This document shows, piece by piece, positions 22,301 through 53,411 of a stretch of DNA of 53,411 nucleotides. The position numbers and the translations under genes are program-made. Location of the stretch: the IMG/VR virus record IMGVR_UViG_3300034121_000706, positions 1 to 53,411 of that record, one strand, 5' to 3'. The stretch comes from a virus (lineage: Duplodnaviria > Caudoviricetes). The notes under the pieces are model-generated. The model had not been told where the DNA came from. It made no database searches and saw nothing but the letters and a program-made list of their open reading frames with translations. Each line of letters opens with the position of its first letter. Within the stretch, counting starts at the first letter, position 1.

Positions 22301-25300
22301 CAAGTGCTTCTGCCTGGATTTCAGCAATGGACTTTCCTTTGTATGCCGGATTCTTTTGTATCTCTGCGATTAATGCACGACCTTGTGGTGACAGTTTCAG
22401 TAATTCTATACCACGTTTAAATCCTTCGGGAAATACAGACTGCCATATGTGCCCGAATTCATGTATCGGTGTGTTTGCGTTAAGATTATCTGTATTTATG
22501 AATACTTTGCCATCGGGTGTTTTAAATCCGTAGATTGTGCCGTCTTTAGTTTTAACATCGGTTATCGCTATGCCTTTGTCTTGTAATTCTTTTTTAGCAT
22601 TTTCAAAATTATTCTTACCAAACAACTCTACTTTCACATTCGGAAATGCCTTTTTAAGTTTGTCTATCAGTTTCGTGAATACACTTTCTGATATTGGTGT
22701 GAATGATTTGTCTGTGGATTGTAGGTCTAAGTCTTTTTCTTCTTTGACTTGTTGGCTATTTTCGCTGCTGCTAATATCAGCGCTACTACCTTGCCTTTCC
22801 CCGCTTTTGTCTGTGGTTGTTTCGGTTGTTCCATTTGCTTGTTCATATTTTAGTGCTTCTTCCCAATTAATTGAACCATCTTCATTTACAAATTTAGCAT
22901 ATAAATCTGAATATTGCTTAAATTCTTTTTCATCAGATTCGGATATATTACTTAATGACTGCAATTCACTTTCAGATACATTATCATATTCTGATAAGAA
23001 ATCTGTTGTTTCATTTGCCTTCTGCGCCCAAAATAAATCTTCTCCGGTTACATCAATTCTCTCATAATTACCACCAAAACCACGTACAAGCGGTAACGAT
23101 TCCATGCTTCCGTACTCGTTTATTGCGTTGGCGACACGATTGATATTGGTAGATTCTGTTTTACCTGCGTCAATGTCTGCTTTTGCACGTCTGATTTCTT
23201 GCCAGGTTAAACCTAATTGCGATGCGTCAATATGATAATCAGTATCATTTCCGTTCCACTCAAACCAACTCTGTGCAATTTCTTTTACCTTTGCAATTAT
23301 ATCGGGAGATACCGAAACTTCTGTTGGTGCAATATTTATCTTTCTTATCTTCTTGCCTTTCTCGTTCAATACATCAATCTTATCACCTAATTTACCCTTT
23401 ACGGTATATCCTAAATCAGATGCAAGTTTCTGTATCTTCTGACGTATCTCTGACTTTCTTGTTTTCTTATTTGTCGGAGTAGAATTGTATTCACGCATTA
23501 AGCCAACTAATCTGTCGTGCTTATCGTTCTTTAGTTTCTGTTCGGATGATACTTGTTCAGCTTTCTTTTGTGGTTCTGCTTTGGGTTGTACTTCGTCAAC
23601 ATAAGACTTTTGCTCACCTTTAAACTTCACTTTTTCCTTATCGAATACCACTAATTCACCTTCTTGTGTCTTGCTTTCACGGAAATAGATACCATCGTAT
23701 CCTTGTGCCTTTAACTCGTTTGTGGTTAATTCAGCAAGTTTCTTTATTCCTTTATCGTTAAGATTGTCAAGCGTTACCCTACCATCAGGCAATTTTTGAT
23801 AGTCAACGGTATCAAATTCGTCAAACTTATCTTTATTGGCATTTAAAACTTCTTGTCTTTTGTCCACCAATCCATAGTCGCCGTTCTCCACCACAAGCGG
23901 ATTTTTGATGTCAACTTCTACCCTTTCTGCCTTATTGTCTTTGGTTTCGTAGCGATTGCCTTTTTCTGTGGAAACAAACGTGCCTAACGCTTGATTTTCA
24001 CCCATGTTTTTCCCTTTTACATGGGTAAGATTTTTGGATTTTATTTCATCAATAATAGCATTAGGCTTTTTTGTAAGTAATTCTTTTTTTAGATTATCTA
24101 CATATTTATCTACTAGCAATGCAGGTGGAACACCATTTGGATAATCTCTCTGTATTCTTTCTGCAATTATTACAGCATCATTTGCATTATCAAACTCAAT
24201 ATTTGATGCAGGCAATTGACTGTCTTTTTCACCAATATTTAACAGGACTTTATTGCCAAAGTCGTTTACTCTGTGTTTTTCAGTTTCATAATAAACATTT
24301 GAACCATTTCCTAATTGTCTAATAGGTTTTATCTCTTGTTCATTTTGTTGAACTTCTTTTCCGTTGGACACATTTTGTCCATCTCCTTGTTGAACTCCGT
24401 TATCGTTTTCTGGTGTTTGTTGTATTCCTGTGACGTTATTTTGTTCTTGCCCTGCGTTAATAGGTTCAACTGGTGTAATAGGATTCTCTTGCTCATCTTG
24501 TATTCTTTTATACTCTACATTCGCCTGATTAGATGCTTCATCTTGCGGTATAATTAATTCAGAACGGTCTTGTCCGAACTGCTCTTTCGCCTGTTCACGA
24601 TTAATAATTGTACCGTCTGACAGCTTAAACAACCCTTCCGCTTGTCTATCAACTTGCGAAATATCTTGTCCATCTGCTTGTGCTTTTAATATAGCTTCTG
24701 CATGGTTTTTACCTTCGTACTTCTTGCCATTAATATTGATAACCGCACTTGTAATTTGTACCGGTTCAACACCTTTCGGTTTATTCCTTACATCTGTTAA
24801 TGCGGATTTCTCTACTGTGATAATTCCATCTTCACCAATTTCAGGATTGTTGGTATTTATTACCACTTCACCATCTGCAAGGTCGTCAAGTATAGTAACT
24901 TCTGCACCATTGTAAGTTGCAATCTTATCTTCCTCTATCAGCGTATTCGGATTGGCAATATTACTCAATGCTTTTTCCTTGCCTTTATTGTACGTGCCGT
25001 CTGCAACTTCTTCTAAACGCTTATTAATGTCGTCTAACAGTAATTGATTCTTCTTATTCAACACTTCGTCATTCACCTGCGACATCGTATTTTTTAGCGT
25101 GTACTTTTTTAATAATAGTTCCGCTAAATCATCATGCAAATCTTCTTTAATAGTAGGCTTAACCGAATTGTACTGTTTCGATATTTCTTCAAATGCTTTT
25201 ACCTCGTAATCAAACTTACCTTGTTCAATATCTCCATCTGCCAACATCTTCTGTCGCATATCCACGAACTGTTGTGGATTATCAAGTGCGTTCTGTAATG

Positions 25301-42995: not shown

Positions 42996-43223
42996 ATGAA
43001 AACTTACATAATAAGTAAAGACGGAGAAGTAAAAGCGGAACTGAACAACCAGGAAAGCGATATAAACGTGATAGGCAAAATGCAAAAATTACAAAGCCAA
43101 TCAACACATTGGGCGATAAAATACGAAGGTTGGAAAGTTGCGGAGATAGACGAAGAAACCGGAATTAAAAGCCAGTGGATAACAAAAGGAGATTTTTTAA
43201 TTATTTCAGAACCTATTAAATAA
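42996..43223 (+). CDS. Early hypothetical protein
   Basis: Tightly packed ORF. Confidence 0.75.
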   Translation: MKTYIISKDGEVKAELNNQESDINVIGKMQKLQSQSTHWAIKYEGWKVAEIDEETGIKSQWITKGDFLIISEPIK

Positions 43224-43230
43224 AAAGACA

Positions 43231-43482
43231 ATGAAAAAGCAAAATAAATACACCTACTTAAATGTAATTCAGCAAAATTATGGACAAGGTTGGGAAGATG
43301 TAAGCGAGTACGAAGCAAACAGCCAGTTTATTAACCTCGAAAAATCCGGAGTATTTTACGAAGATAAGAAAGGAAGAAAACGGGAATATTGGCTAACTAC
43401 CCACGATCTGAAAGAATACAGATTAACAGGTTATCCGACAAGGATAATAAACCGCAAAGAATTAAACAAAGCTATAATTTAA
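43231..43482 (+). CDS. Early hypothetical protein
   Basis: IQQNYGQGWEDV...LKEYR motif recurrent in phage early proteins. Confidence 0.75.
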   Translation: MKKQNKYTYLNVIQQNYGQGWEDVSEYEANSQFINLEKSGVFYEDKKGRKREYWLTTHDLKEYRLTGYPTRIINRKELNKAII

Positions 43483-43501
43483 CCAAACTAAAAACAGTAC
43501 A

Positions 43502-44128
43502 ATGAAAACAATAACAATAAATCTATACAAGTTCAACGAACTTTCAGAAAAAGCAAAACAAACAGCAATTAATGATTATAGAAACGAACAAGACAACTAC
43601 ATTTATTATGATGAAATAATAGAAACCGTTAAAAAGTTAATTGATTTATTCAACCTTAAAACCGGAAACAGATACACAGATATAAGATGCAGCCATATAG
43701 ACGACACTATTTTAGAATTATCAGGAGTAAGACTTTATAAATATATTATGAATAATTACGGCAAGGAATTATTTACACCTAAGTTTAAAAAATGTATTGA
43801 CAGAGAAGTAAAAAGTAAATCATATATCTGTAAGGTTGACACTAATTGGAAAGGAGAAAAATACACGATGTTATATTATAAACACAAAACAGATAACAGT
43901 TGTGTATTAACAGGAGTGTGTTACGATGATGATATTTTAAAACCAGTGTACGACTTTTTAAGCAAACCTGATAAAAATACAACCTTTGAAGATTTAATCA
44001 GTGAAATTGAAAGCGCAATTAAAAAGACTTTTGATAATACCGAACAATGGCTAAATTCCGATGAATTTATAACGGAAGAAATAGAGAACAACGGATACGA
44101 CTTTACAGAAAACGGAAAAGTAGCCTAA
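43502..44128 (+). CDS. Conserved phage early protein
   Basis: LYKFNELSEKAKQ.AI...C.LTGVCYD...SDE...E..E.N.Y.F.ENG family motifs. Confidence 0.8.
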   Translation: MKTITINLYKFNELSEKAKQTAINDYRNEQDNYIYYDEIIETVKKLIDLFNLKTGNRYTDIRCSHIDDTILELSGVRLYKYIMNNYGKELFTPKFKKCIDREVKSKSYICKVDTNWKGEKYTMLYYKHKTDNSCVLTGVCYDDDILKPVYDFLSKPDKNTTFEDLISEIESAIKKTFDNTEQWLNSDEFITEEIENNGYDFTENGKVA

Positions 44129-44129
44129 T

Positions 44130-44324
44130 ATGATAATCAAAACAATGAAATCCGCAGACCTCTTTGAAATCGACAAAGTGCAAATTTTCGACAGATTGAC
44201 AGGTAACTATATTTGTACAATGACATTAACAGACAGCGCCGGAGATTTACGCAACATTGCAGACTACCAACCGGAAATTAAGACAAAGGAAAGCGAAAAC
44301 CCGAAACAAACTAAATTATTTTAA
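44130..44324 (+). CDS. Early hypothetical protein
   Basis: Packed ORF. Confidence 0.6.
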   Translation: MIIKTMKSADLFEIDKVQIFDRLTGNYICTMTLTDSAGDLRNIADYQPEIKTKESENPKQTKLF

Positions 44325-44342
44325 ACACTTAAAAAATATATC

Positions 44343-44633
44343 ATGCAGCTAATAATAACACGAAAGGCAAACGCAATAATAAAGAACCTAAACACGAATG
44401 AAAAAACTATGTACGAATATATAGTGGAATTAATTAAACAAGACAACGACCATATCCAAAAATGCGAAACGGAAAAGTATTTCCACGATGATAAAGAACA
44501 TTTTAATAAAGCAATAAGCCACCAGTTAAATTTGTCATTCAGGGCAAAGTATATAATACAAATTTTAGGACTTTATTTATACGATGATATAGAAACAAAA
44601 ACCATAACAGTAAAAGCAAGAAACGATAATTAA
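44343..44633 (+). CDS. Early hypothetical protein
   Basis: Packed ORF. Confidence 0.7.
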   Translation: MQLIITRKANAIIKNLNTNEKTMYEYIVELIKQDNDHIQKCETEKYFHDDKEHFNKAISHQLNLSFRAKYIIQILGLYLYDDIETKTITVKARNDN

Positions 44634-44702
44634 CCACCAAAACGAATTAACTAAACAACATAAACGAATATTAAATAATCAACCAATTTTAAAAACAATT
44701 TT

Positions 44703-44930
44703 ATGGCAAATTTAACCAAGTCAGAACGACACAACCGGATGTTAAATAAAACATTCAACCACTACAAAAACCACCAAAATAATTTACCACCTTGTCAGCT
44801 ATACGGCAGATTTTTAGAAATTGCAAAAGAAAAGCTAAATATTACAATAGATGAAGCGAGAAAACAATATGGACAGTACACAGTGCAGCAGTGGGAAATA
44901 TTATTAAAATTAGGTTGGAATAAATCTTAA
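44703..44930 (+). CDS. Early hypothetical protein
   Basis: Packed ORF. Confidence 0.7.
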   Translation: MANLTKSERHNRMLNKTFNHYKNHQNNLPPCQLYGRFLEIAKEKLNITIDEARKQYGQYTVQQWEILLKLGWNKS

Positions 44931-45004
44931 ACGGATCAAACTTCCACTAAACAGCAAGGTATTACCGGCAATTAATCAATTTTAAAACTAAAAATAATAA
45001 TTTT

Positions 45005-45256
45005 ATGAAAGTATTAATAAACACAATTTTCAGGGTAAATGTAGACGGAGAATTTAATTATATGTCTGTTAGAGAAATTGAACTATCAGGACTGAACACC
45101 GTACAACATAAAAGTAACGGATATTCACACGACTGGACAGAAATAGTGAAATTCTGCCCTGAAAGAGATACAGATTTAGAAATAAAGAACACAGTATATT
45201 TAACCAAACGACCAACCGGCAGAGTGCAGGGAAGTAGCACCGTATCATTTAGCTAA
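45005..45256 (+). CDS. Early hypothetical protein
   Basis: Follows leader repeat. Confidence 0.7.
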   Translation: MKVLINTIFRVNVDGEFNYMSVREIELSGLNTVQHKSNGYSHDWTEIVKFCPERDTDLEIKNTVYLTKRPTGRVQGSSTVSFS

Positions 45257-45318
45257 TCTTAAACCTCCACTAATCCGCAAGGCAGTAACAGAATTTTTAA
45301 CAAACTAAATTTAAGAAA

Positions 45319-45873
45319 ATGAATAACGCAGAAATAAATCTAAAAATGAACACATTAAATTTAAGAGAAATAGCAGAACTAAATGGACTGACTTACGCAG
45401 AATCAACGAGCGGAAATAATGGTTATCCAAGCGGAATTAAAGGCATTATTTTAGGCTTTGAAACATTCGAGGAAGCAGAAGAATTAGCCGAAAAACACGG
45501 ACTAAGTATCGAAACATTTAAGAAAAAAGACGGCTGGCAACTTTGGGAAAGAACCGGAAATAAAGCATACGAACCATTTAAAAATAGTTGTGATGATTAT
45601 GGTGACAATTACAGCCAGTTAGAAAAAATGAGTGAAAAAGTATTTTTTGAATCAGAGGTAAAAGACAGCCTTGAAAATTTCGACAATTTAGAAGATTTAC
45701 AAAATTTCTTATCTAAAAAACAAAATTTATTTGACGAAGTTGAAATTTTGGAAATTGACGAAATAGTAATTACTTGTCAAGGCGAATATTACGAAACTAT
45801 CAAAAAAACAAGCATGATTTTTTCGCACGACACAAAAACAATAGTTATAGGATTAATATACAGAAACCAATAG
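45319..45873 (+). CDS. Early acidic hypothetical protein
   Basis: Follows leader repeat; NGYPS...GFETFEEAE...DGWQLW. Confidence 0.8.
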   Translation: MNNAEINLKMNTLNLREIAELNGLTYAESTSGNNGYPSGIKGIILGFETFEEAEELAEKHGLSIETFKKKDGWQLWERTGNKAYEPFKNSCDDYGDNYSQLEKMSEKVFFESEVKDSLENFDNLEDLQNFLSKKQNLFDEVEILEIDEIVITCQGEYYETIKKTSMIFSHDTKTIVIGLIYRNQ

Positions 45874-45934
45874 CAAGAAACGTAAATTAAATATTTATAA
45901 AATTATATTAAATAACCTCTTAAAATTTACAGCA

Positions 45935-46168
45935 ATGAAGAACACAATATACATCAACGCAAAGGAACTGATTAAAAAAGAAGCCAAAACGCTTAAAACA
46001 CAGAACCCAAAAGATAAAGCGTATATAAGATATAATCTTAACAATTTAGCCAATGAATTAATAAAACAATTTAATTGGTATGCGATGAAAGAAATGATAA
46101 CACAGAAAAAAGCTACAACATACGCTTATTGGCTAAGTTCGTACACAGCAAAACAACAACCGAAATAA
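45935..46168 (+). CDS. Early hypothetical protein
   Basis: ORF with A-rich leader. Confidence 0.7.
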   Translation: MKNTIYINAKELIKKEAKTLKTQNPKDKAYIRYNLNNLANELIKQFNWYAMKEMITQKKATTYAYWLSSYTAKQQPK

Positions 46169-46250
46169 AGCGTAATTAATCAAACCACTTTAAACCTCCA
46201 CTAATCCGCAAGGCAGCAAAAGAATTATTAACAAAGTAAAATTTAAAAGT

Positions 46251-46463
46251 ATGAAAACAACATATAACGTCACAGAAGTTGAAAACCAAAAAGTACATAA
46301 ATTTAACACAATAAAAAAGGCGAAAGAATTTATTGAAAATTGGGGAATAACAAACAATCAACATACAGGTAAAGTAGATATTGACAAACGAACTATACTT
46401 TGGCATGTAGGAACATTTAAAAATCCAGTCATTCAATTTGAAAAAATAAACCACTTTAATTAA
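46251..46463 (+). CDS. Early hypothetical protein
   Basis: Follows leader repeat. Confidence 0.7.
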   Translation: MKTTYNVTEVENQKVHKFNTIKKAKEFIENWGITNNQHTGKVDIDKRTILWHVGTFKNPVIQFEKINHFN

Positions 46464-46478
46464 TCTAAATCAAACAAA

Positions 46479-46754
46479 ATGAACAAAGCACAAATCAAAA
46501 AAGCATTAGACTTTTACAAAGCATTAGCGCACCCCCTTAGTGATAAAATCCTACCGCTGATAAGCAAACGTGAATACCAGGTGCAAGAAATTTACAACAC
46601 CCTGAAATTGGAACAGTCAGCCGTAAGCGTACATTTAAACCGATTAAAAACGCATGGCATTGTATTATTCCGGCAAGACGGTAAGAAACGCCATTATAGG
46701 CTGAATGATGCAGTAATTGAGAAGGCGGAACAAGCTGCAAAGTTAGTATCTTAA
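46479..46754 (+). CDS. ArsR/SmtB (HlyU-like) HTH transcription regulator
   Basis: KALAHP...IL...V.EIY..LKLEQSAVSVHL..LK..GIV..RQDGK.R.Y.L. Confidence 0.9.
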   Translation: MNKAQIKKALDFYKALAHPLSDKILPLISKREYQVQEIYNTLKLEQSAVSVHLNRLKTHGIVLFRQDGKKRHYRLNDAVIEKAEQAAKLVS

Positions 46755-46803
46755 CTAAGGTGCAAGGTAGTAACAGAATTATTAACAAACTAAATTTAAG
46801 AAA

Positions 46804-47136
46804 ATGAAAGCAACGTATCACGAATTAAAAGACAATATTAAAGACCTTAATATATCTATTGAAGATTTATATAAAGCAAAAGACAAACAAATTTTAATTT
46901 GGCTATCTGACAAAGATTATTACTTCACTTTAATATTGAAGTCAAACGGAAAGCCAGACTGTAAAATAAGTTCATTTACAGCAAATATTTGGGCAAGGAC
47001 AGACGCAGGAGTAAATTATAAAAAATACAAAGACACAGCCACGTTACAAAGAGAAGTAAAAAAACTTATTAAAAGTAAGATTGACACAAGCGGAGATATA
47101 TCATTCAGTCTTAATAACGAGGTACACATTTTTTAA
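46804..47136 (+). CDS. Early hypothetical protein
   Basis: Follows leader repeat. Confidence 0.7.
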   Translation: MKATYHELKDNIKDLNISIEDLYKAKDKQILIWLSDKDYYFTLILKSNGKPDCKISSFTANIWARTDAGVNYKKYKDTATLQREVKKLIKSKIDTSGDISFSLNNEVHIF

Positions 47137-47195
47137 AAAAAAGCAAACCAATAACCAACCAACCGATTTTTAACAACTAACATAAATAAACAAGT

Positions 47196-47378
47196 ATGGA
47201 AATAAGCATTACAGTCAACGGCACAATGAAGATAGCTATGACACCAAAGACAGAGGTTATGAAGTATATGGCAGAACTCATTAAAGACGAAGCAACCTTT
47301 GTAGTTTCACGCCCAAATAATTCAAGCGAGATAGTATTCACACTGGTAAAAGAAAGGGCAATAACCGAACCAAAATAA
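47196..47378 (+). CDS. Hypothetical protein
   Basis: ORF with A-rich leader. Confidence 0.65.
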   Translation: MEISITVNGTMKIAMTPKTEVMKYMAELIKDEATFVVSRPNNSSEIVFTLVKERAITEPK

Positions 47379-47473
47379 AAAAAGTTACATTTTTTTACAA
47401 ATAAGTTGCATAATTAAAAAACTTTACTTAATATTGTACTACAATTCTGAACTACAAACAAACGATACACCAA

Positions 47474-47848
47474 ATGCTGAAAGAAGAAATAAAAAAACGA
47501 TGCCTGGAAGATGCTGATTTATTCGCTGATTTATGCGCAACCACAGGCAAGATACCTAATGCTACTTTGCAGTTCCTTAACAGAAATTCAAGTATAGAAT
47601 TAAGAAGTTACGAGGTTATGACTGTAATTAAAAAGCACACAGGATTAACAGAAAAAGATATTTTAAATCCAATAATCAAACCAATGAAATACGCATTAAT
47701 CAACAGCAAAGGAATGTACTTACAGGCAGGTAGAGATTTCTCATTCACAGCATACAGCAAGGAAGCACTAACATTTAGCACCGGACAGGAAGCAGAACGC
47801 AGAAGTAAACAGTTGATGCGATTCGGAGTGAAGGTGGTTCAGGTATAA
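47474..47848 (+). CDS. Hypothetical protein, N-terminal Cro-like HTH possible
   Basis: First gene after promoter-like 47405-47436. Confidence 0.65.
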   Translation: MLKEEIKKRCLEDADLFADLCATTGKIPNATLQFLNRNSSIELRSYEVMTVIKKHTGLTEKDILNPIIKPMKYALINSKGMYLQAGRDFSFTAYSKEALTFSTGQEAERRSKQLMRFGVKVVQV

Positions 47849-47894
47849 TTTTTTCATAGGGTTGTTTTTAAGTAGTTTTGGTTAGCTACACACG

Positions 47895-47943
47895 GTAGGT
47901 CGGGAGTTTTAATTAGGGTTTTATGTTTCATTTCCCGACCTAC
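47895..47943 (+). other. 11-bp stem, 27-nt loop structure in T-rich non-coding region
   Basis: gtaggtcggga ... tcccgacctac. Confidence 0.6.
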
Positions 47944-48179
47944 TAATTTTTAAAAAGTTCTTTTACAATATACAATGCAGAACGATGATGTACTCCGATG
48001 TCTTGGAGTGAGAAAGTAGAAGGTGTTTCTTATCGGGTTAATACTGCAATCAGTACCGTAAAATGTACGTTCTGCGCCAATTATGTTGGTACTCATAAGT
48101 ACATAAGATACACAAAGACTGGCAATCGGAAAGACGATACCCTTTTGGGTTTTTAAATCAAACAAATTAAATCAATAAT

Positions 48180-48365
48180 ATGAGTAACAGATACTACAAA
48201 GGCAATCCGATAAACAACAAAGCTATTGCCAAAGACTGCGAGGATATATTTTGCAAAACGTATATGGATAAGATACGGTTCGCTTGTGCTATCAATGCAG
48301 ACGGAAATAAGATATACCATATCGTAAGGATAGCCAATAAACAATCAGCAATAATCTTAAACTAA
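48180..48365 (+). CDS. Hypothetical protein
   Basis: ORF with A-rich leader. Confidence 0.6.
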   Translation: MSNRYYKGNPINNKAIAKDCEDIFCKTYMDKIRFACAINADGNKIYHIVRIANKQSAIILN

Positions 48366-48372
48366 TAAACCA

Positions 48373-48543
48373 ATGACAAACAAACCAAAATACGACATAT
48401 TAGGTGAACGCATTGACGAACACAGCTACTACTCAAAAAAGCAACAGAAAGAATTTGACTTTTATCAGTTCTTTAAGGTAATCGGTATCGCATCAGGTGT
48501 AATATTACTCGCATCATTAATCTTTCAAATAATCATTAAGTAA
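48373..48543 (+). CDS. Small membrane-anchored protein (56 aa)
   Basis: Hand-translated MTNKPKYD...VIGIASGVILLASLIFQIIIK. Confidence 0.65.
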   Translation: MTNKPKYDILGERIDEHSYYSKKQQKEFDFYQFFKVIGIASGVILLASLIFQIIIK

Positions 48544-48731
48544 TGGCAGAACGAATAGCATTCACGTTGGTAATTAACAACAGAATACACACCGAAGATA
48601 GCTGCGGTAATTGCCGGAGAGAAATACAGACAACAAGCGAAAGCCTATTGTACGAACTACACAAGTTCGGATTAAAAAACACCGTTAACAGTCACGCCAT
48701 TTATTACACAATTAAAAGCAAAGCACTATGA
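48543..48731 (+). CDS. Hypothetical protein
   Basis: Coupled ORF. Confidence 0.6.
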   Translation: MAERIAFTLVINNRIHTEDSCGNCRREIQTTSESLLYELHKFGLKNTVNSHAIYYTIKSKAL

Positions 48732-49180
48732 GTTTACATCAAAAATACATCATCGTTAAGCGTACCGAGTACAACAATATGCTAAAGGAAATTGAAAGAA
48801 TCCGTAAGCGTGAAAAGCGGATTATCAATACGGTTGCCATAGCAGAAATAACATTGGAAGATATGAAAGAGATATTCGCATTCTGCCACGAAACAAAAAG
48901 CAGAGTACCTGATGTAGTTGAATTACGACACTTTTCCAGGTACTTCTTATGCATGAACACAGAGTACATTTTAAAGAGAATAGGCACGTTGACGAACTGC
49001 AAAGACCACGCAACTGTAATCCATAGCAGGAACAGTATAGAGCAACATATTAACCGCTATCCGAACACCATGAATGCATACATAGCATTCGAGGAAGAAA
49101 TTATGGGTAAGATTGAAAAGATATACAACGCACAGGTGCAAGTGCCGGTACAGGAAGAAGAATTGGAAATGGCGAGTTAA
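48728..49180 (+). CDS. DnaA C-terminal-like HTH protein
   Basis: KSR....V..R...Y....LKRIG.....DHATVIHS motif. Confidence 0.85.
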   Translation: MSLHQKYIIVKRTEYNNMLKEIERIRKREKRIINTVAIAEITLEDMKEIFAFCHETKSRVPDVVELRHFSRYFLCMNTEYILKRIGTLTNCKDHATVIHSRNSIEQHINRYPNTMNAYIAFEEEIMGKIEKIYNAQVQVPVQEEELEMAS

Positions 49181-49187
49181 TTAAGTA

Positions 49188-49412
49188 ATGGGAAAAAGAG
49201 AGTTAACGAAGTACAGACAGTTATTGTTAAAAGCATTTAGGCTGAATCCGATTAAGATACATCATTCTACTGGACTTCCGATGAATGAAATAATATGGCA
49301 TATACAAGGGTTAGAAACGGAAAATGTAACGGAATTAACCATGCATAATCTATATGAAACAATCGAAAGCGAAATTAGCAAAACCAACAGTAAATTAAAT
49401 TTAGTACAATAA
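49188..49412 (+). CDS. Hypothetical protein
   Basis: Packed ORF. Confidence 0.65.
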   Translation: MGKRELTKYRQLLLKAFRLNPIKIHHSTGLPMNEIIWHIQGLETENVTELTMHNLYETIESEISKTNSKLNLVQ

Positions 49413-49672
49413 TGAGAAAAGAGATATTTATGGTATTTACAGGTTATGCTGAACTGGCATTTGGCAGCTTAGAAAAGGCAGAAAAATTCAAAAGTGAAAA
49501 AGGACTTAATACCATAATATTTAAGTACGGAGAAGAAAACCCAAACAAGATACCGGAGGTCAAAAGAGAAACAGATTACAGAAAGTGCAAAGACAATATG
49601 GCGACACTTAGTTATGGCTATGGCAAGTCAAGACAAAGTTTAACATCACGTTCAATGGATAGTAAATATTAA
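49412..49672 (+). CDS. Hypothetical protein
   Basis: Coupled ORF. Confidence 0.65.
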   Translation: MRKEIFMVFTGYAELAFGSLEKAEKFKSEKGLNTIIFKYGEENPNKIPEVKRETDYRKCKDNMATLSYGYGKSRQSLTSRSMDSKY

Positions 49673-49676
49673 GACA

Positions 49677-49871
49677 ATGAGAACAGACGCAAATCAAATA
49701 CTAATGGATATGAATAAAGAGGTAGGCAAACAATCCATTCTGATAACTGTAATAAAAGACCTATCAATGTTCAGCCATACCAAGGAGTACAAGCAGTACC
49801 AAGTAATGTTGGAGGAATCAGAACAAAAATACGATGAATTGAAGAACGAATTAAATAACATTATAAAATAA
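49677..49871 (+). CDS. Hypothetical protein
   Basis: Packed ORF. Confidence 0.65.
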   Translation: MRTDANQILMDMNKEVGKQSILITVIKDLSMFSHTKEYKQYQVMLEESEQKYDELKNELNNIIK

Positions 49872-49878
49872 AAACAAA

Positions 49879-50433
49879 ATGCAACTCAAAAAAGCAAAAG
49901 ATAATTGGGTTAATATTCCTTTTGATTATGAATATGAAATAACAAGATTCGGTCACGTTAGAAATATTAATACAGGAAACGTAATAAGGCATTTTACCAA
50001 TAGAGGTGGATATAAGTATTGCACAGTAAGCAACAGTGGTAGGAAAAGGAATATAATGATACATAGACTTATTGCACCTGTATTTATTCCAAATCCAAAT
50101 AATAAGCCATCTATTAATCACATTAATTGCAACAAAACAGACAACAGAATAGAAAACTTAGAATGGTGTACGCCAAAAGAAAATGCAATACACGCAAGGC
50201 AGAATGGATTAACTGTAAATCCGCCTTCACAAAATGGAAAACTTGGTAAACTCAACAGTACATCAAAGCCAGTAAGGCAGATAGATTTATCCGGCAATAT
50301 TATTCGTGATTATGATTGCGCAAGACAAGCTATGGAATACGGATTTACACCATCACATATTAGCAGATGTTGTAATGGAACAAAAGAAAAATACAAAGGA
50401 TATAAATGGACTTTCATAAATAAAAACAAATAA
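49879..50433 (+). CDS. NUMOD4-HNH-NUMOD1 homing endonuclease
   Basis: YEITRFGHVRN, HRLIA..FIPNP.NKP.INHIN.NK.DNR..NLEW, C-terminal NUMOD1-like domain. Confidence 0.92.
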   Translation: MQLKKAKDNWVNIPFDYEYEITRFGHVRNINTGNVIRHFTNRGGYKYCTVSNSGRKRNIMIHRLIAPVFIPNPNNKPSINHINCNKTDNRIENLEWCTPKENAIHARQNGLTVNPPSQNGKLGKLNSTSKPVRQIDLSGNIIRDYDCARQAMEYGFTPSHISRCCNGTKEKYKGYKWTFINKNK

Positions 50434-50437
50434 TAAA

Positions 50438-51385
50438 ATGGGAAAATTAAGACAGGCGACAAGAACAAGAGCCAAAATCAGATTAGGACTTTCAGCGGTT
50501 TCAGGTGGGGGTAAGACAATGAGTGCATTACTTATAGCTAAGGGTATTTGCGGTGATCTATCAAAAGTAGCATTAATAGACACAGAAAATGGAAGTGGTG
50601 ATTTATATGCACACTTAGGAAGCTATAACGTATTACCATTAGAACCCGATTTCACTCCTGAAAAATATATAAGTGCTATTCACGAATGCGAAAATGCCGG
50701 AATGGAAGTTATTATAATTGATTCCATAACGCATGAATGGGATGGCAAGGGCGGAATATTGGATATATCAAACTCAATGTCAGGGAACAGCTATACTAAT
50801 TGGGCAAAATTAACACCAAGACATCAAGCGTTTATTGATGCTATCCTACAATCAAAATGCCACATTATTACAACGGTAAGAAGAAAGCAGGATTACGAAA
50901 TGACAACCAATTCAAGTGGCAAGTTAGTTCCGCAAAAGGTTGGACTGAAAGAGGTAACAAGAGAAGGGTTTGAATATGAATTAACAATAAACTTAGAACT
51001 TGACACAAAGCACAATGCTTCTGCATCAAAAGACAGAACAGGTTTGTTTATTGGTAAGCCTGAATTTGTACCATCAGAAGAAACAGGGAAACTCATTAAA
51101 GATTGGTGCGAAACCGGTGTAGATGAAAGTACCGCCATTACAGACGCAGTTACAAAATTGGCTAACTGCAATACAGTAGATGAATTAAAAGCACTGAAAA
51201 TTGAATTACCTGACTTTGTGGTGAAATCACCAGTCTTTACCAAATCAGCAACAGAACGGTACAATGCTATTATAGCACAGTCACCGAAAGAACCGGCAGT
51301 AAATCAAGAATTAACCGAAGAAGAAAAGGCAGAGATAGCAAAGGAAGAAGCGGATTTATTTAGCAAACCCAAAAACAAGAAGTAA
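50438..51385 (+). CDS. AAA_24 / Sak4-like recombination ATPase
   Basis: SGGGKT Walker A, IDTENGS, IIIDSITHEW, FEYE, KDRT. Confidence 0.9.
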   Translation: MGKLRQATRTRAKIRLGLSAVSGGGKTMSALLIAKGICGDLSKVALIDTENGSGDLYAHLGSYNVLPLEPDFTPEKYISAIHECENAGMEVIIIDSITHEWDGKGGILDISNSMSGNSYTNWAKLTPRHQAFIDAILQSKCHIITTVRRKQDYEMTTNSSGKLVPQKVGLKEVTREGFEYELTINLELDTKHNASASKDRTGLFIGKPEFVPSEETGKLIKDWCETGVDESTAITDAVTKLANCNTVDELKALKIELPDFVVKSPVFTKSATERYNAIIAQSPKEPAVNQELTEEEKAEIAKEEADLFSKPKNKK

Positions 51386-51386
51386 T

Positions 51387-51557
51387 ATGCCAAAGGAATG
51401 CGAGGAATGTGACGGAACAGGTAAAGTATGTTATTCGTGCTGCGGTGACGACATAAAAGGAAATGACATTGATTTATGCCCTACCTGTTACGAGCATTGT
51501 AGCCTTGAAGAAGAAGATTGTGAATCGTGCAATGGAACAGGAATTATTGAAGATTAA
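51387..51557 (+). CDS. DnaJ-type zinc-finger mini-protein (56 aa)
   Basis: Hand-translated MPKECEECDGTG...CPTCYEHC...CESCNGTGIIED. Confidence 0.8.
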   Translation: MPKECEECDGTGKVCYSCCGDDIKGNDIDLCPTCYEHCSLEEEDCESCNGTGIIED

Positions 51558-51568
51558 AATAACCACCA

Positions 51569-51964
51569 ATGACAACCACAGAGCAAATAAATATGATTTA
51601 TTCAGACACACAAGGAAGCCTATACGTGCTGAAATCAGGTGCAGTGGAGTTATCTCTTAACTGCGAGAAAAGAACACGCAAATTAGGTCATTTTGGTACA
51701 CCGCCAAACGGTGTGTTGTCATACTATAAACATGAGAAAGAAAAAGATGTATTTCGTAAGACAAATGCATGGAGTATTAATTGGAATGTTATACAATACT
51801 TACCGAGTGACAGCAGTATGATAAACATTAAATCGGAAGGTGGTATTTACCGTATCAGTAAGGAGAAGGCATTGAAAATGGGTGAGTTCATGTTTTTTAA
51901 GAATGCCGGTATTGAGAAGAAGATTTACGTGCGGAAGATATTTTTTGATGTGGATGGGTTATAA
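51569..51964 (+). CDS. Hypothetical protein
   Basis: 131-aa ORF; its stop codon lies in the first TAAC of the array. Confidence 0.75.
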   Translation: MTTTEQINMIYSDTQGSLYVLKSGAVELSLNCEKRTRKLGHFGTPPNGVLSYYKHEKEKDVFRKTNAWSINWNVIQYLPSDSSMINIKSEGGIYRISKEKALKMGEFMFFKNAGIEKKIYVRKIFFDVDGL

Positions 51965-52080
51965 CGATTGGTGGCTTGGCGAAGTTGCCGAACACAAAAC
52001 TTCATTAGAATTACAAATTTTAAAATTAAGATAAAATGTCAATAGAAAACGAATACGGCAATTTTGCCAAACCGATGTTA
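51962..52080 (+). repeat. attC-like hairpin site A
   Basis: taacgattggtggcttggcgaagttgccg ... cggcaattttgccaaaccgatgtta, imperfect inverted repeat with unpaired bases. Confidence 0.8.
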
Positions 52081-52257
52081 GGCGAAGTGTATTTGGTTAA
52101 AAAAAATAAAAAGTTTATGAAAGGTCACGGATATAGCACATTAAATGGTTATAAATTTAATTGGACTTTTGATAAAAATGAAGCGAGGAAAATGGAGTAT
52201 TCAACTGCTAATAGTTTAGCTATATCAAGCGGTGGTTCTGTTTTACATTTCGCCTAA
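52036..52257 (+). CDS. Cassette-associated hypothetical protein
   Basis: Starts inside site A, ends at the TAA of the next TAAC. Confidence 0.7.
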   Translation: MSIENEYGNFAKPMLGEVYLVKKNKKFMKGHGYSTLNGYKFNWTFDKNEARKMEYSTANSLAISSGGSVLHFA

Positions 52258-52455
52258 CGATTTGCAGATTGGCGGTCGTTTTTTAACCAATTAAATAAAC
52301 GAAAATGGAATTACAAACAGCAATAGAAATACTTGAATACCATCAGGAATGGAGATTAGGTAAAAGAGAAGATATGATTCACGAACCTAAAAAACTGATA
52401 GAGGCTTTGGATATAGTACTAAGCGAGGTTAAAAAATTTCGCATAGGTGCTGTTA
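52255..52455 (+). repeat. attC-like site B (arms poorly matched, chimeric)
   Basis: Left arm resembles site E, right arm taggtgctgtta shared with site C. Confidence 0.6.
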
Positions 52456-52556
52456 GCGGTTCGTTGCTTGATGATAAGTGGAAACAATATAGAAATATTA
52501 CTAATAATGAAGATGCTTGGTGCTTTAAAGAGTGGTTAAAAAGCAATGACCGCTAA
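52305..52556 (+). CDS. Cassette-associated hypothetical protein
   Basis: Starts inside site B, ends at the TAA of the next TAAC. Confidence 0.7.
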   Translation: MELQTAIEILEYHQEWRLGKREDMIHEPKKLIEALDIVLSEVKKFRIGAVSGSLLDDKWKQYRNITNNEDAWCFKEWLKSNDR

Positions 52557-52679
52557 CGGTTCGCAGCTAAACGAGGTGGCTGATTATACCTCGAAACTTT
52601 AATTAAAGGAACAAAATTATGAATATAGACAAAACTCAATCAGAAGCAGAAAGCCAGCCATCTTGTTTAGGTGCTGTTA
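52554..52679 (+). repeat. attC-like hairpin site C
   Basis: taacggttcgcagctaaacgaggtggctg ... cagccatcttgtttaggtgctgtta. Confidence 0.8.
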
Positions 52680-52912
52680 TGCGTAGTGTTTCTGATGTTA
52701 TCAAAGAAGGTAGTATAGTTTGGGTAAAATCATCTAACCAACAAATTCATTGTGGAAGGGTGGATAAACTTTATCCCGAAACAAATGAAGCAATGGTATT
52801 TAATTTTGATGCTTGGACACATTGGCAAGTATCTTATGATAATATTGTAAGAGTAGGGGTAAAACATTTTAACGGTGATGGGTACAATGATTGGATGTCT
52901 AGGCTTCCTTAA
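52619..52912 (+). CDS. Cassette-associated small SH3/KOW-like protein
   Basis: Starts inside site C; IKEGSIVWV...GRVDKL beta-barrel pattern. Confidence 0.7.
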   Translation: MNIDKTQSEAESQPSCLGAVMRSVSDVIKEGSIVWVKSSNQQIHCGRVDKLYPETNEAMVFNFDAWTHWQVSYDNIVRVGVKHFNGDGYNDWMSRLP

Positions 52913-53034
52913 CATTACGCATAACTAATCGCTAACACTTTAAAATGTACGCACAAATAAAGCCTACAACGTTTATTAGAAATGCTATAAGAGATATGGA
53001 AAGTGAATTGCGTAGTCGGTATTAGAATTACCGC

Positions 53035-53083
53035 TAACGTTCCTCAGATTGGCGGTCGTTTTAATGCTGCCAATGTGCTGTTA
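53035..53083 (+). repeat. Short attC-like hairpin site E (49 bp)
   Basis: taacgttcctcagattggcggt ... gctgccaatgtgctgtta. Confidence 0.75.
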
Positions 53084-53110
53084 TATTTAGGTTTTTAAAA
53101 CTTTAGACAA

Positions 53111-53311
53111 ATGACATTAAAAGAATTAAGAGAAAAAAGAAAGAAAGCAGAACCATTTTTTAGCGATTGCTGCAAAAAAAGTTTTGTTGGAAAAAGTAAT
53201 GGTTTATACACATACTATGTTTGTGAATGTGGCAAAAAAACAACACCAATAAACGGCAAAGGAAAAATGCTTGATTTATACGGATTAGTTAAACGAGTTT
53301 TAAAAACTTGA
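53111..53311 (+). CDS. Cassette-associated small Cys/Zn-binding protein
   Basis: SDCC...YVCECGK; wholly enclosed between 23-bp inverted repeats. Confidence 0.7.
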   Translation: MTLKELREKRKKAEPFFSDCCKKSFVGKSNGLYTYYVCECGKKTTPINGKGKMLDLYGLVKRVLKT

Positions 53312-53355
53312 ATATAACGATTAACAGATTTATTTAGTTTATTAATTTATATATC

Positions 53356-53411
53356 ATGGAAGAAATAAAGAAAATATTTGAAGAAATAATGGATTATCAG
53401 ATGAATAATGT
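53356..53411 (+). CDS. Partial ORF in next array unit
   Basis: ATG at 53356 after TAAC 53315; runs off window. Confidence 0.5.
   Translation, partial: MEEIKKIFEEIMDYQMNN

Follow-up and report, generated by a model that had tools for sequence, protein, structure and literature searches.

The GTTA...TAAC segments at the end of the window (the whole stretch of lake phage DNA analysed here, 53,411 nucleotides) are units in an array that runs from position 51958 to the contig end. This array is probably an integron-like cassette system of Bacteroidota phages, recombined on folded coding-strand DNA, and not a classical integron. Its anatomy, the conservation of this anatomy, the pairing of own ends as opposed to neighbouring ends, the strand bias, the break points at the cores and the linkage to a recombinase in related records are seen in the sequences. 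The window represents only about 36% of a genome, and the array runs off the contig end.

Layout of the array and its inverted repeats

In the array, gene bodies (GTTA...TAAC) alternate with hairpin modules (TAAC...GTTA, Table 1). A typical hairpin module opens with TAAC and 5 nt and closes with 1 nt and GTTA; in between, some 20 bp form an imperfect stem, which is mismatched at position 4/5, has G·T at 11 and 14, and encloses a loop. The loop usually holds the start codon and the first codons of the next gene.

Table 1. Features of the array at the end of the window
Feature	Position	Strand	Description
Left border of array	51958..51965	+	GTTATAAC at the stop of ORF 51569-51964; TAAC opens site A
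Hairpin site A	51962..52080	+	TAAC, 6 nt, 19-bp stem, loop, 2 nt, GTTA; cores 111 nt apart
Cassette body 1	52077..52258	+	Ends of 15 nt: 14 Watson-Crick pairs, G·T (position 11)
Site B (atypical)	52255..52455	+	Cores 193 nt apart; loop codes the conserved 51-aa leader of ORF 52305-52556
Cassette body 2	52452..52557	+	106 nt; ends pair over 9 + 6 bp, without G·T at position 11
Hairpin site C	52554..52679	+	TAAC, 5 nt, 20-bp stem, 72-nt loop, 1 nt, GTTA
Cassette body 3	52676..52925	+	Ends of 15 nt: 14 Watson-Crick pairs, G·T (position 11)
Region D	52922..53037	+	Decayed junction and cassette remnant; TAAC, second CGCTAAC at 52930-52936
Mini site E	53035..53083	+	TAAC, 6 nt, stem of 11 bp including G·T, short loop, GTTA; cores 41 nt apart
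Cassette body 4	53080..53318	+	Ends of 23 nt: 21 Watson-Crick pairs, T·G (position 9), G·T (position 11)
Site F	53315..53411	+	TAAC, 5 nt, start of a hairpin module, ATG at 53357; cut by the contig end

The genes are divided between the two kinds of module. The ATG of ORF 52036-52257 (position 52036) lies in the loop of site A, residues 14-73 are encoded by body 1, and the stop is the TAA of the TAAC core. Body 2 has no start of its own and contributes the 32-aa tail of ORF 52305-52556. The ATG at 52619 lies in the loop of site C, whose stem has a G·G at position 4 and a G·T at both 11 and 14, and body 3 codes for residues 20-97 of ORF 52619-52912; its left arm includes an ATG (52679). ORF 53111-53311 is located entirely within body 4. 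For the ORF at the left border, 51569-51964, we looked for a matching left arm and found none. Pfam and PHROGs searches with the cassette ORFs returned no informative family.

Several sites have relatives within or outside the window. The 5' halves of sites B and E are 81% identical over 36 nt; the stem of site B, paired by hand, comprises 17 Watson-Crick pairs and one G·T among 25 positions and is absent from the minimum-energy fold. A hairpin homologous to site C, with altered pairs, is present in L188/L189, and site F is 100% identical to a 75-kb record, G042, over 98 nt. Region D contains a 26-aa ORF (52945-53025) with an end resembling the tail of protein P0002, and its right arm, ...ATTACCGCTAAC, is matched by the left arm at 52452. 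In the X4 contig, 52475 is connected to 52983 with 74 different letters in between. By analogy with attC clusters (CALINs), the window could be described as holding three intact and three decayed or cut sites, without a recombinase.

A preliminary description of this DNA had noted four GTTA...TAAC segments, each with its own inverted ends, and all four were confirmed as bodies 1 to 4. The repeat search recovered the pairs 52077-52091 / 52244-52258 (15 nt, 93% complementary), 52676-52690 / 52911-52925 (15 nt, 93%) and 53080-53102 / 53296-53318 (23 nt, 91%). The remaining pair, 52452-52469 / 52541-52557, holds as 9 + 6 bp around a small internal loop, but an ungapped scan finds its first 9 bp only. 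Where the three ungapped pairs depart from Watson-Crick pairing, at four positions in all, the opposition is each time a G/T wobble on the + strand.

The whole window holds 24 inverted repeats with a score of at least 11 and a span of 60-450 nt, and four of the 24 start exactly with GTTA. In 300 dinucleotide shuffles of the window we counted a mean of 0.15 GTTA...TAAC modules (maximum 2), compared with the four observed. Between 51900 and 53411, where three ungapped pairs were observed, 2,000 shuffles gave a mean of 0.0065, with any such pair in 13 of them. The fourth match in the window, at 44525-44716, shares no other feature with the family: a hairpin site and the position-11 G·T are both absent, and a start codon coincides with its right arm; this pair is probably due to chance. 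We did not count a crossing repeat (52090-52104 / 52279-52293), which is A/T-rich and is lost in body 1 homologues with other neighbours; its right copy is also compatible with the far side of site B. Inverted repeats starting with GCAT (L017, L021, L050) form a separate, iteron-like repeat block.

Pairing of cassette ends and conservation of the hairpin site

We compared the window with 88 cassettes from other viral contigs, each bounded by two sites. Own ends form Watson-Crick pairs at positions 5-9 in 72-84 and at positions 12-15 in 61-66 of the 88 cassettes. At outer position 11, G·T is found in 66 and a Watson-Crick pair in one, and position 16 pairs in just 26; own-end complementarity extends over 15 bp and then stops. 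Ends facing each other across a hairpin, by comparison, pair at positions 5-9 in only 38-90 of 176 cases. The core reads GTTA, then T or G, two letters of any kind, mostly G, and mostly C or T. Within the window, the 15-bp pairing with G·T at 11 is found in exact form in units 1 and 3; unit 4 retains the G·T in a longer stem, and unit 2 deviates.

That each pair of ends differs from the others holds outside the window too, with 81 distinct left-end 15-mers among the 88 cassettes. As given by Nivina et al. 2016 (PMC5027507), the R box of classical attC sites has the consensus RYYYAAC/GTTRRRY and measures about 7 nt. The ends are indeed longer than this, and the 15-bp pairing with G·T at position 11 is conserved as a feature; the stem is usually of this fixed length, however, and not open-ended, the 23 bp of unit 4 being an outlier. 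When the units were closed in silico on any of three hairpins, own ends contributed a gain of -10.5 to -16.3 kcal/mol and the ends of other units one of -0.8 to -7.1 kcal/mol.

Among homologues, L026 and L032 keep their pairing via two compensated changes. The body 1 homologue L187 (also LR756500.1) has a different 3' end and its own ends are unpaired; L186 is without the left arm. Cassette-against-cassette blastn among the 88 produced 22 hits with few homologous pairs, so covariation between homologues rests on few cases. Overall, the modules do not lack covarying ends, as the preliminary description had considered they might: the variable positions pair in the 72-84 of 88 cassettes given above.

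The hairpin modules themselves form a family. A scanner for TAAC, GTTA and a stem of about 20 bp, with spacers of 4-6 nt and 0-2 nt, accepted 201 sites (180 unique) in 93 of 199 sequences and four in the same sequences reversed. With a pattern silent on the 3' arm, at least 129 viral stretches were matched, and the stem was present in 79 of the 129 matches listed. Among 16 sites from outside the pattern selection, picked for having a stem, 88.6% of cells pair, compared with 35.6-47.9% when the partner is slid. In this set both partners vary at 17 of 20 inner-stem pairs, and at one pair all 16 sites have G·U. Two flank motifs are weak when taken alone: TAACGNTTNNCAG occurs nine times in the window (4.0 expected) and GGTGCTGTTA eight times (2.6 expected).

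The stems have a marked strand bias. Inner stems contain 325 G(5')·T versus 22 T·G pairs and seven A·C versus 67 C·A; nearly every C·A falls at positions 4-5. Wobble pairs, in the inner stems as at outer position 11, are nearly confined to the coding strand. At sites A, C and E, folding of the + strand is favoured over that of the - strand by 1.8-6.5 kcal/mol (site A, -14.3 versus -10.4; site C, -18.2 versus -11.7 kcal/mol). The fold z-scores of single sites in the array context are weak (-0.9, -1.9 and -1.0). The gene is on the folding strand in 79 of 88 cassettes, so gene orientation does not discriminate between DNA and RNA, and the wobble bias toward the coding strand would equally be expected of an RNA structure.

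We therefore considered an RNA-level element. Stems in early polycistronic mRNA could serve processing, stability or translational control, a long-range stem closing each gene and the junction hairpin being bound by a dimeric RNA-binding protein or ribonuclease, with mosaicism as a side effect. On the sense strand the wobbles would be G·U, the gene lies on the wobble-bearing strand in the 79 cassettes mentioned, hairpin loops hold start codons and the TAAC core holds stop codons; many complete array-bearing phages, moreover, have no recombinase. But this reading leaves unexplained why local partners mismatch across a hairpin while the distant own ends match, why break points lie at both cores, and why six records combine a recombinase with a common terminal TAAC junction. 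Rfam gave no match at E <= 10 on either strand of 43000-53411. Nor was there any excess of sigma-70-type promoters (8 versus 8.7 expected) or intrinsic terminators (1 versus 1.1) in 51400-53411, in a scan that did not cover Bacteroidota promoters. We consider an RNA-level element very improbable.

Break points and the array-linked recombinase

The same bodies and hairpins recur in many different combinations, and homology ends at the GTTA and TAAC cores. Body 1, which is found in other contexts in L182-L186, sits behind three unrelated full hairpins (window, L184, L185) and a related one in L187, and in front of four different hairpins (window = L186, L183, L184, L185). Of the best 120 homologues, 82 carry the junction motif, and in these the 51-aa leader of ORF 52305 runs, at the codons GGTGCT|GTTA, into 71 distinct tails. 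The GTTA of site B is the best documented break point, even though the stem of this site is unfolded in the minimum-energy structure. The G042 record and the last 19.9 kb of the window have three cassette pieces only in common, at 97-100% identity, and the matches end at 52084, 52566 and 53314. Contigs from four lake metagenome runs had 49 loose ends; among the 23 listed, 17 lie 10 nt or less from a core. Neither a circle nor an excision joint was seen; these runs were searched as assembled contigs, data in which rare joints are invisible.

The window gave no PF00589 match, neither in six frames nor in the 75 ORFs scanned with Pfam. Among 37 site-bearing viral records searched for PF00589, eight had a hit, and six of the 37 encode a Xer-like tyrosine recombinase of 266-298 aa downstream of the array and on the same strand. 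In these six records the last TAAC lies about 30-65 nt ahead of the recombinase gene in a hairpin-less junction; in five of six, TAAC is followed by NNN-TATAT(G/A)TAA. Because the terminal motif TAACNNNTATATRTAA does not exceed expectation in the window (8 matches versus 11.5 expected), we see no attI-like site there. The six enzymes are 36-72% identical to each other. They reach 136-161 bits on the integron integrase model TIGR02249 (cut-off 265), which they match in two stretches with profile positions of about 180-238 unmatched. Their best model is NF040815 (XerA-type), at 176-206 bits and under its cut-off of 220.

Most arrays are found without such a gene. No recombinase was found in five related array-bearing records, one of them 98% complete, and among 11 records at least 90% complete three have any PF00589 hit, only one of these being of the array-linked kind. 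With the six recombinases as queries, tblastn found none within 2 kb of sites in other loci, 35 stem-confirmed bacterial sites included. The recombinase of G042 lies about 19 kb away from the array and scores lower (75 bits).

The absence of the recombinase from most array-bearing records, together with the conserved cores and flanks and the translation starts in the loops, would suit another explanation: conserved regulatory hairpins may act as short-homology hot spots for general recombination in co-infecting phages, with no dedicated enzyme. Such a system would resemble PeSL (promoter-early-stem-loop) elements, mobile regulatory cassettes of T4-type phages that are exchanged by homologous recombination between repeats. 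As in our arrays, small accessory phage genes are flanked there by repeated modules of expression signal and stem-loop and are shuffled between phages, but we know of no own-end complementarity, core motif or linked recombinase in PeSL elements. Short homology would neither create nor maintain a cassette-specific own-end complementarity of 15 bp with a fixed G·T, and it leaves the recombinase linkage and the hairpin-less terminal junction unexplained. We regard hot spots of general recombination as unlikely.

Proposed mechanism and relation to integrons

In the integron-like reading that we prefer, the two ends of a cassette and the hairpin would stack, in single-stranded coding-strand DNA, as one long imperfect hairpin. 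Its two protein-binding arms would flank an asymmetric 5/1-nt bulge beside the paired TAAC/GTTA core, where a Xer-like tyrosine recombinase would cut and exchange strands. Own ends would match, and ends facing across a hairpin would not, because partners are swapped at the core. If the folded coding strand were cut in its AAC, the hairpin and the downstream gene would move as one, to be inserted beside the recombinase at the 3' end of the array. Exchange would occur at the GTTA side as well, and hairpins and bodies would therefore reassort. Inferred parts of this model are that the DNA folds as a single strand, that a circle forms as an intermediate, where the cut falls, and that the enzyme acts in trans on the window array.

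The preliminary description had placed the cut at G|TTA; the main cut would more likely lie in TAAC, 5' of the hairpin. It had also offered two alternatives for the inverted ends, and both hold in part. A circle with an extended hairpin stem agrees with the folds, which favour own ends, but the circle itself is a putative intermediate. As to two kinds of independently foldable module, GTTA...TAAC bodies and TAAC...GTTA hairpins do assort independently.

A broader version of this reading is plausible to us, though we lean slightly against it. A 'mirror-image integron' may be active across unrelated Bacteroidota phages, lytic crAss-like ones included, in which a small Xer-like recombinase, often supplied in trans from another phage or the host, recombines the coding strand, so that cassettes would travel hairpin-first with their own start codon. 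The AAC of TAAC and that of the GTTA complement, and thus of both strands, would be usable, and bodies and expression leaders would therefore reassort. This reassortment would yield protein families with one N-terminal leader and dozens of different tails.

The likeness to integrons is extensive. The phage arrays consist of cassettes, mostly single-gene, and their sites share with attC the folded imperfect hairpin with two stems, an unpaired spacer, a variable loop and paired AAC/GTT cores, a layout that sites A, C and E show in the window. The first bases of a cassette are complementary to the far side of the cassette's own site, one strand is marked by a G:T excess, and a tyrosine recombinase of the Xer/IntI branch lies at one end of some arrays. 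Phage attC clusters (CALINs) are reported by Qi et al. 2023 (PMC9892861). Among the six attC sites of three virulent phages that they describe, five were recombined by IntI1 into attI1, and the top strand of P12002L_attC2 gave no recombinants. Our array could be an ordinary classical attC cluster served on its bottom strand by a host integron integrase, IntI, as Qi et al. 2023 suggested for the CALINs of phages. The attC-like architecture and the activity of IntI1 on those phage sites speak for this, and the P12002L phage holds two sites that our scanner accepts at a lower cut-off of 9.

However, the differences from classical integrons are many. According to Nivina et al. 2016 (PMC5027507), the G:T excess marks the recombined (bottom) strand of classical attC sites, whereas in the phage arrays the predicted folding strand, judged from G·T bias and fold energies, is the coding one. 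The phage hairpin lies 5' of the gene and supplies its start codon, unlike the classical attC, which lies 3' of the gene. The outer stem, with its fixed G·T at position 11, measures 15 bp and not 7 bp, and the bulge is 5/1 nt. The recombinase is located at the 3' end, co-oriented, while the classical attI lies beside intI and Pc at the 5' end; the array-linked enzymes are without the IntI-specific insert and below the TIGR02249 cut-off. Break points lie at both cores in the phage arrays, so hairpins and bodies reassort, and the carriers are Bacteroidota phages, some of lytic type (crAss-like here). In addition, titles are available for 25 of the stem-confirmed bacterial loci, and 23 of these are presumably Bacteroidota, the phylum being assigned from names. 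A classical cluster is, in our estimate, the least probable of the explanations considered.

Other single-strand systems offer partial parallels. Phages of the CTX-phi type are filamentous, and their single-stranded DNA is integrated by host XerCD on a folded, forked hairpin. By analogy, the phage arrays may likewise combine a Xer-type tyrosine recombinase with a bulged site that exists only in folded single-stranded DNA, but CTX-phi inserts one whole genome into one chromosomal site and the arrays hold many small cassettes in dsDNA phages. IS200/IS605 and REP/RAYT elements use HUH (Y1) transposases and strand-specific imperfect hairpins in single-stranded DNA. Strand-specific hairpin recognition and short fixed tetranucleotides at the cut may be common to both, yet we saw no HUH gene here and the array-linked enzyme is a tyrosine recombinase.

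Integrons are the textbook bacterial device for stockpiling and swapping genes, with one integrase family and bottom-strand recombination. The phage arrays would follow the same logic with a different enzyme branch, the opposite strand, and another site geometry and cassette layout, in virulent-type phages of a phylum where classical integrons matter little. Such an integron-like cassette system of Bacteroidota phages is scarcely described so far: in the openly accessible literature we found the phage system described nowhere beyond Qi et al. 2023. The 15-bp outer stem, the three fixed G·T pairs and the 5/1 bulge provide testable substrates for strand choice by tyrosine recombinases. For annotation there is a warning, as many small phage proteins would be leader-tail chimeras formed at GTTA. 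Finally, the system would explain the movement of accessory genes between otherwise unrelated freshwater and marine phages, as in the 97-100% identical cassettes that the window and the dissimilar 75-kb phage G042 have in common.

Inverted ends of the cassettes

According to the preliminary description, each of the four GTTA...TAAC units of the array carries its own long inverted repeats. All four pairs lie at the positions given there (see table), and wherever the three ungapped pairs depart from Watson-Crick pairing (four oppositions), the departure is a G/T wobble on the + strand. While units 1 and 3 fit the general end pattern (15 bp, G·T at position 11) exactly, the stem of unit 4 is longer than usual, retaining the G·T at 11, and unit 2 departs from the pattern. 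An exact GTTA start was found in 4 of the 24 inverted repeats of the window (score >=11, span 60-450 nt). Dinucleotide shuffles of the window (n=300) contained on average 0.15 GTTA...TAAC pairs and at most 2, versus 4 observed. Within 51900-53411, three pairs compared with a shuffle mean of 0.0065 (at least one pair in 13 of 2000 shuffles). Thus, the inverted ends are not due to chance.

Array features in the window
Feature	Position	Strand	Description
site A	51962-52080	+	built like site C; contains ATG of ORF 52036
unit 1 ends	52077-52091 / 52244-52258	+	14/15 complementary
site B	52255-52455	+	atypical
unit 2 ends	52452-52469 / 52541-52557	+	9 + 6 bp, small loop between
site C	52554-52679	+	TAAC, 5 nt, 20-bp stem, 72-nt loop, 1 nt, GTTA
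unit 3 ends	52676-52690 / 52911-52925	+	14/15 complementary
region D	52922-53037	+	decayed
site E	53035-53083	+	miniature hairpin site
unit 4 ends	53080-53102 / 53296-53318	+	21/23 complementary
site F	from 53315 to contig end	+	truncated by contig end

A further GTTA...TAAC inverted repeat (44525-44716, 14 nt, one mismatch), whose right arm lies over the start codon of ORF 44703, was rejected as a cassette: it has neither a hairpin site nor a G·T at position 11 and is probably a chance occurrence. The left arm of unit 3, GTTATGCGTAGT, contains an ATG and recurs on cassettes with different contents (loci L095 and L183); certain arm types may be favoured for supplying a start codon.

We then considered 88 cassettes, each bounded by two sites. 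Their own ends (the first and last 15 nt of one cassette) formed Watson-Crick pairs at the variable positions 5-9 in 72-84 and at positions 12-15 in 61-66 cassettes. Position 11 was G·T in 66 cassettes and Watson-Crick in a single one, and pairing ended at position 16 (paired in 26). Where two ends face each other across one hairpin, just 38-90 of 176 cases were paired at positions 5-9. That the pairs differ from one another held outside the window too, with 81 distinct 15-mers among the 88 cassette arms. When the window units were closed in silico, as had been suggested, and folded on hairpin A, C or E, their own ends gained -10.5 to -16.3 kcal/mol versus -0.8 to -7.1 kcal/mol for the ends of another unit. 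Covariation of the two ends between homologues was borne out in part: both arm differences between L026 and L032 are compensated, but L187 (= LR756500.1) has a different 3' end and its own ends do not pair. A C-to-T change in the L185 arm yields an additional G·T, and the L188 arm has a single mismatch at position 5.

Hairpin modules and their strand bias

The GTTA...TAAC bodies are separated by modules spanning from TAAC to GTTA. In the stem of site C, position 4 is G·G and positions 11 and 14 are G·T; its loop holds the ATG of ORF 52619. Units 1 and 2 take their stop codon from the TAA within the TAAC core. A scan of the window found no hairpin sites outside the array. Region D contains an ORF (52945-53025, 26 aa) whose C-terminal end resembles the tail of P0002, a homologue of the protein of ORF 52305-52556, and its right arm fits the left arm at 52452. 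An intact version of this cassette is present in a contig from lake run X4; from the copy in the window, the hairpin and the 5' part seem to have been lost.

Sites of this kind occurred in 8 of 51 loci collected around relatives of the window ATPase. A search pattern comprising the 5' half and the cores, silent on the 3' arm, gave at least 129 viral matches, with the stem present in 79 among the 129 listed, and in bacterial genomes the stem was present in 35 of 121 matches. Of the 25 stem-confirmed bacterial loci listed with a title, 23 are, going by their names, Bacteroidota. In total, 201 sites (180 unique) were found versus 4 in the same sequences reversed. The TAAC-to-GTTA spacing had its main peak at 116-120 nt and another at 111-112 nt, and smaller classes lay at ~78-85 and ~40 nt. 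In a set of 16 sites, independent of the pattern but selected for the presence of a stem, both sides changed in 17 of the 20 inner pairs, one pair was G·U in 16/16, and pairing (88.6%) fell to 35.6-47.9% when the partner was slid. Three related phage loci (L017 6971-7181, L021 8840-9050, L050 12915-13125) carry GCATTGCGAACGCATTGC-type inverted and direct repeat blocks followed by (GGAAA)n, which look like iterons or an origin.

Inner stems held 325 G(5')·T versus 22 T·G oppositions, the 5' G being imposed by the pattern at most sites but its partner not, and 7 A·C versus 67 C·A, the latter nearly all at positions 4-5. No search imposed the G·T at position 11 of the outer stem. The + strand folded more stably than the - strand at sites A (-14.3 versus -10.4 kcal/mol), C (-18.2 versus -11.7) and E (-7.0 versus -5.2), with weak single-site z-scores (-0.9, -1.9 and -1.0). 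The G:T excess lies on the coding strand, whereas in classical attC sites it marks the bottom strand, the one that is recombined (Nivina 2016, PMC5027507). Counted outward from the bulge, position 11 is a G·T in either arm, and its G lies on the strand leaving the centre; we read this symmetry as a pseudo-dyad, as would be expected for two protein monomers.

Exchange of cassettes and hairpins

Body 1 recurs in L182-L186 (88-95% protein identity). The hairpins upstream of it are unrelated in the window, L184 and L185, and those downstream differ between the window (= L186), L183, L184 and L185; homology stops at GTTA and TAAC. In L188/L189, body 3 kept the homologous upstream hairpin with different neighbours on both sides.

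The first 51 aa of ORF 52305-52556 are a leader encoded in site B. All 13 homologues aligned have it unchanged and part immediately after residues GAVS, that is, between GGTGCT and GTTA. Relatives of the nearly invariant leader are abundant (680 at E <= 0.001). Among the 120 best homologues (P0001-P0120), it is followed by dozens of C-terminal tails (3-96 residues) that are unrelated to one another, with the switch at the GTTA core; the 82 bearing the junction motif had 71 distinct first-ten-residue tails (~59 crude clusters). The actual product may be the leader alone, the tails being accidental.

Only three pieces of the last 19.9 kb of the window (52084-52397, 52357-52566 and 53314-53411) have a match, at 97-100% identity, in G042 (L186, L322, L323), a phage record of 75 kb that has terminal repeats. 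In lake-water contigs from four runs, one of which (X1) may be the window's own sample, 17 of the 23 loose ends listed (of 49) lay <=10 nt from a core. These contigs join other cassettes or hairpins at 51973, 52255, 52449, 52554-52566, 52920-52922 and 53314, and one has 74 letters in place of 52476-52982.

Genomic setting, recombinase and proposed mechanism

The window, which is the entire record, is a linear viral contig (completeness ~36%) with Pfam matches to crAss-type tail ring and muzzle proteins, a P22-like portal, a C5 methylase, an HNH endonuclease and an AAA_24 ATPase. Between ~40 kb and the contig end, the run of small ORFs on the + strand resembles an early or accessory region. An HNH/NUMOD4 homing-endonuclease-like gene (49879-50433) lies directly 5' of the ATPase gene. 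A 3770-aa ORF (16380-27692, - strand) within the crAss-like structural block has no Pfam match and could encode a virion RNA polymerase-type protein of crAss-like phages.

Pfam analysis of the ORFs and a PF00589 search revealed no tyrosine recombinase in the window, and PF00589 was absent from five related array-bearing records. It matched in 8 of 37 further site-bearing records, and in six of the eight the array is followed, on its own strand, by a gene for a recombinase of 266-298 aa. These six genes are preceded by same-strand sites, the last body's TAAC lying ~30-65 nt before the gene start; in five, this TAAC is followed by NNN-TATAT(G/A)TAA without a hairpin. The proteins share 36-72% identity. 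Their best model is XerA-type, scoring under the cut-off, and the integron-integrase model matched below its cut-off in two stretches with its middle skipped; the enzymes are therefore Xer-like rather than IntI. Many complete array-bearing phages have no recombinase, and G042 encodes a different tyrosine recombinase distant from its array (55299-55811).

Qi et al. 2023 (PMC9892861) describe attC clusters found with classical detectors in virulent phages, including Polaribacter phage P12002L, and IntI1 activity on 5/6 sites from three such phages. Our scanner accepted two P12002L sites at a lowered cut-off. The literature searched held no account of an outer stem of 15 bp, of fixed wobbles, of a bias towards the coding strand, of a layout with the hairpin first or of an Xer-like partner.

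The hairpins and paired ends may have a role in RNA, since the wobble bias fits it too, as does the sense orientation of the gene in 79 of 88 cassettes; such a role would not explain why partners are swapped, where homology breaks or why a recombinase is present. The sequences themselves show the anatomy, the pairing of own rather than facing ends, the strand bias, the break points and the linkage to the recombinase. In an integron-like system, the substrate would be folded coding-strand DNA. A cut inside the AAC of the folded strand, as described for integrons (PMC5027507), would fall in TAAC, and the frequent GTTA break points would require either that the opposite strand is used or that a further exchange takes place. 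With such a cut, the hairpin would travel with the downstream gene, and cassettes would enter at the hairpin-less junction adjoining the recombinase.
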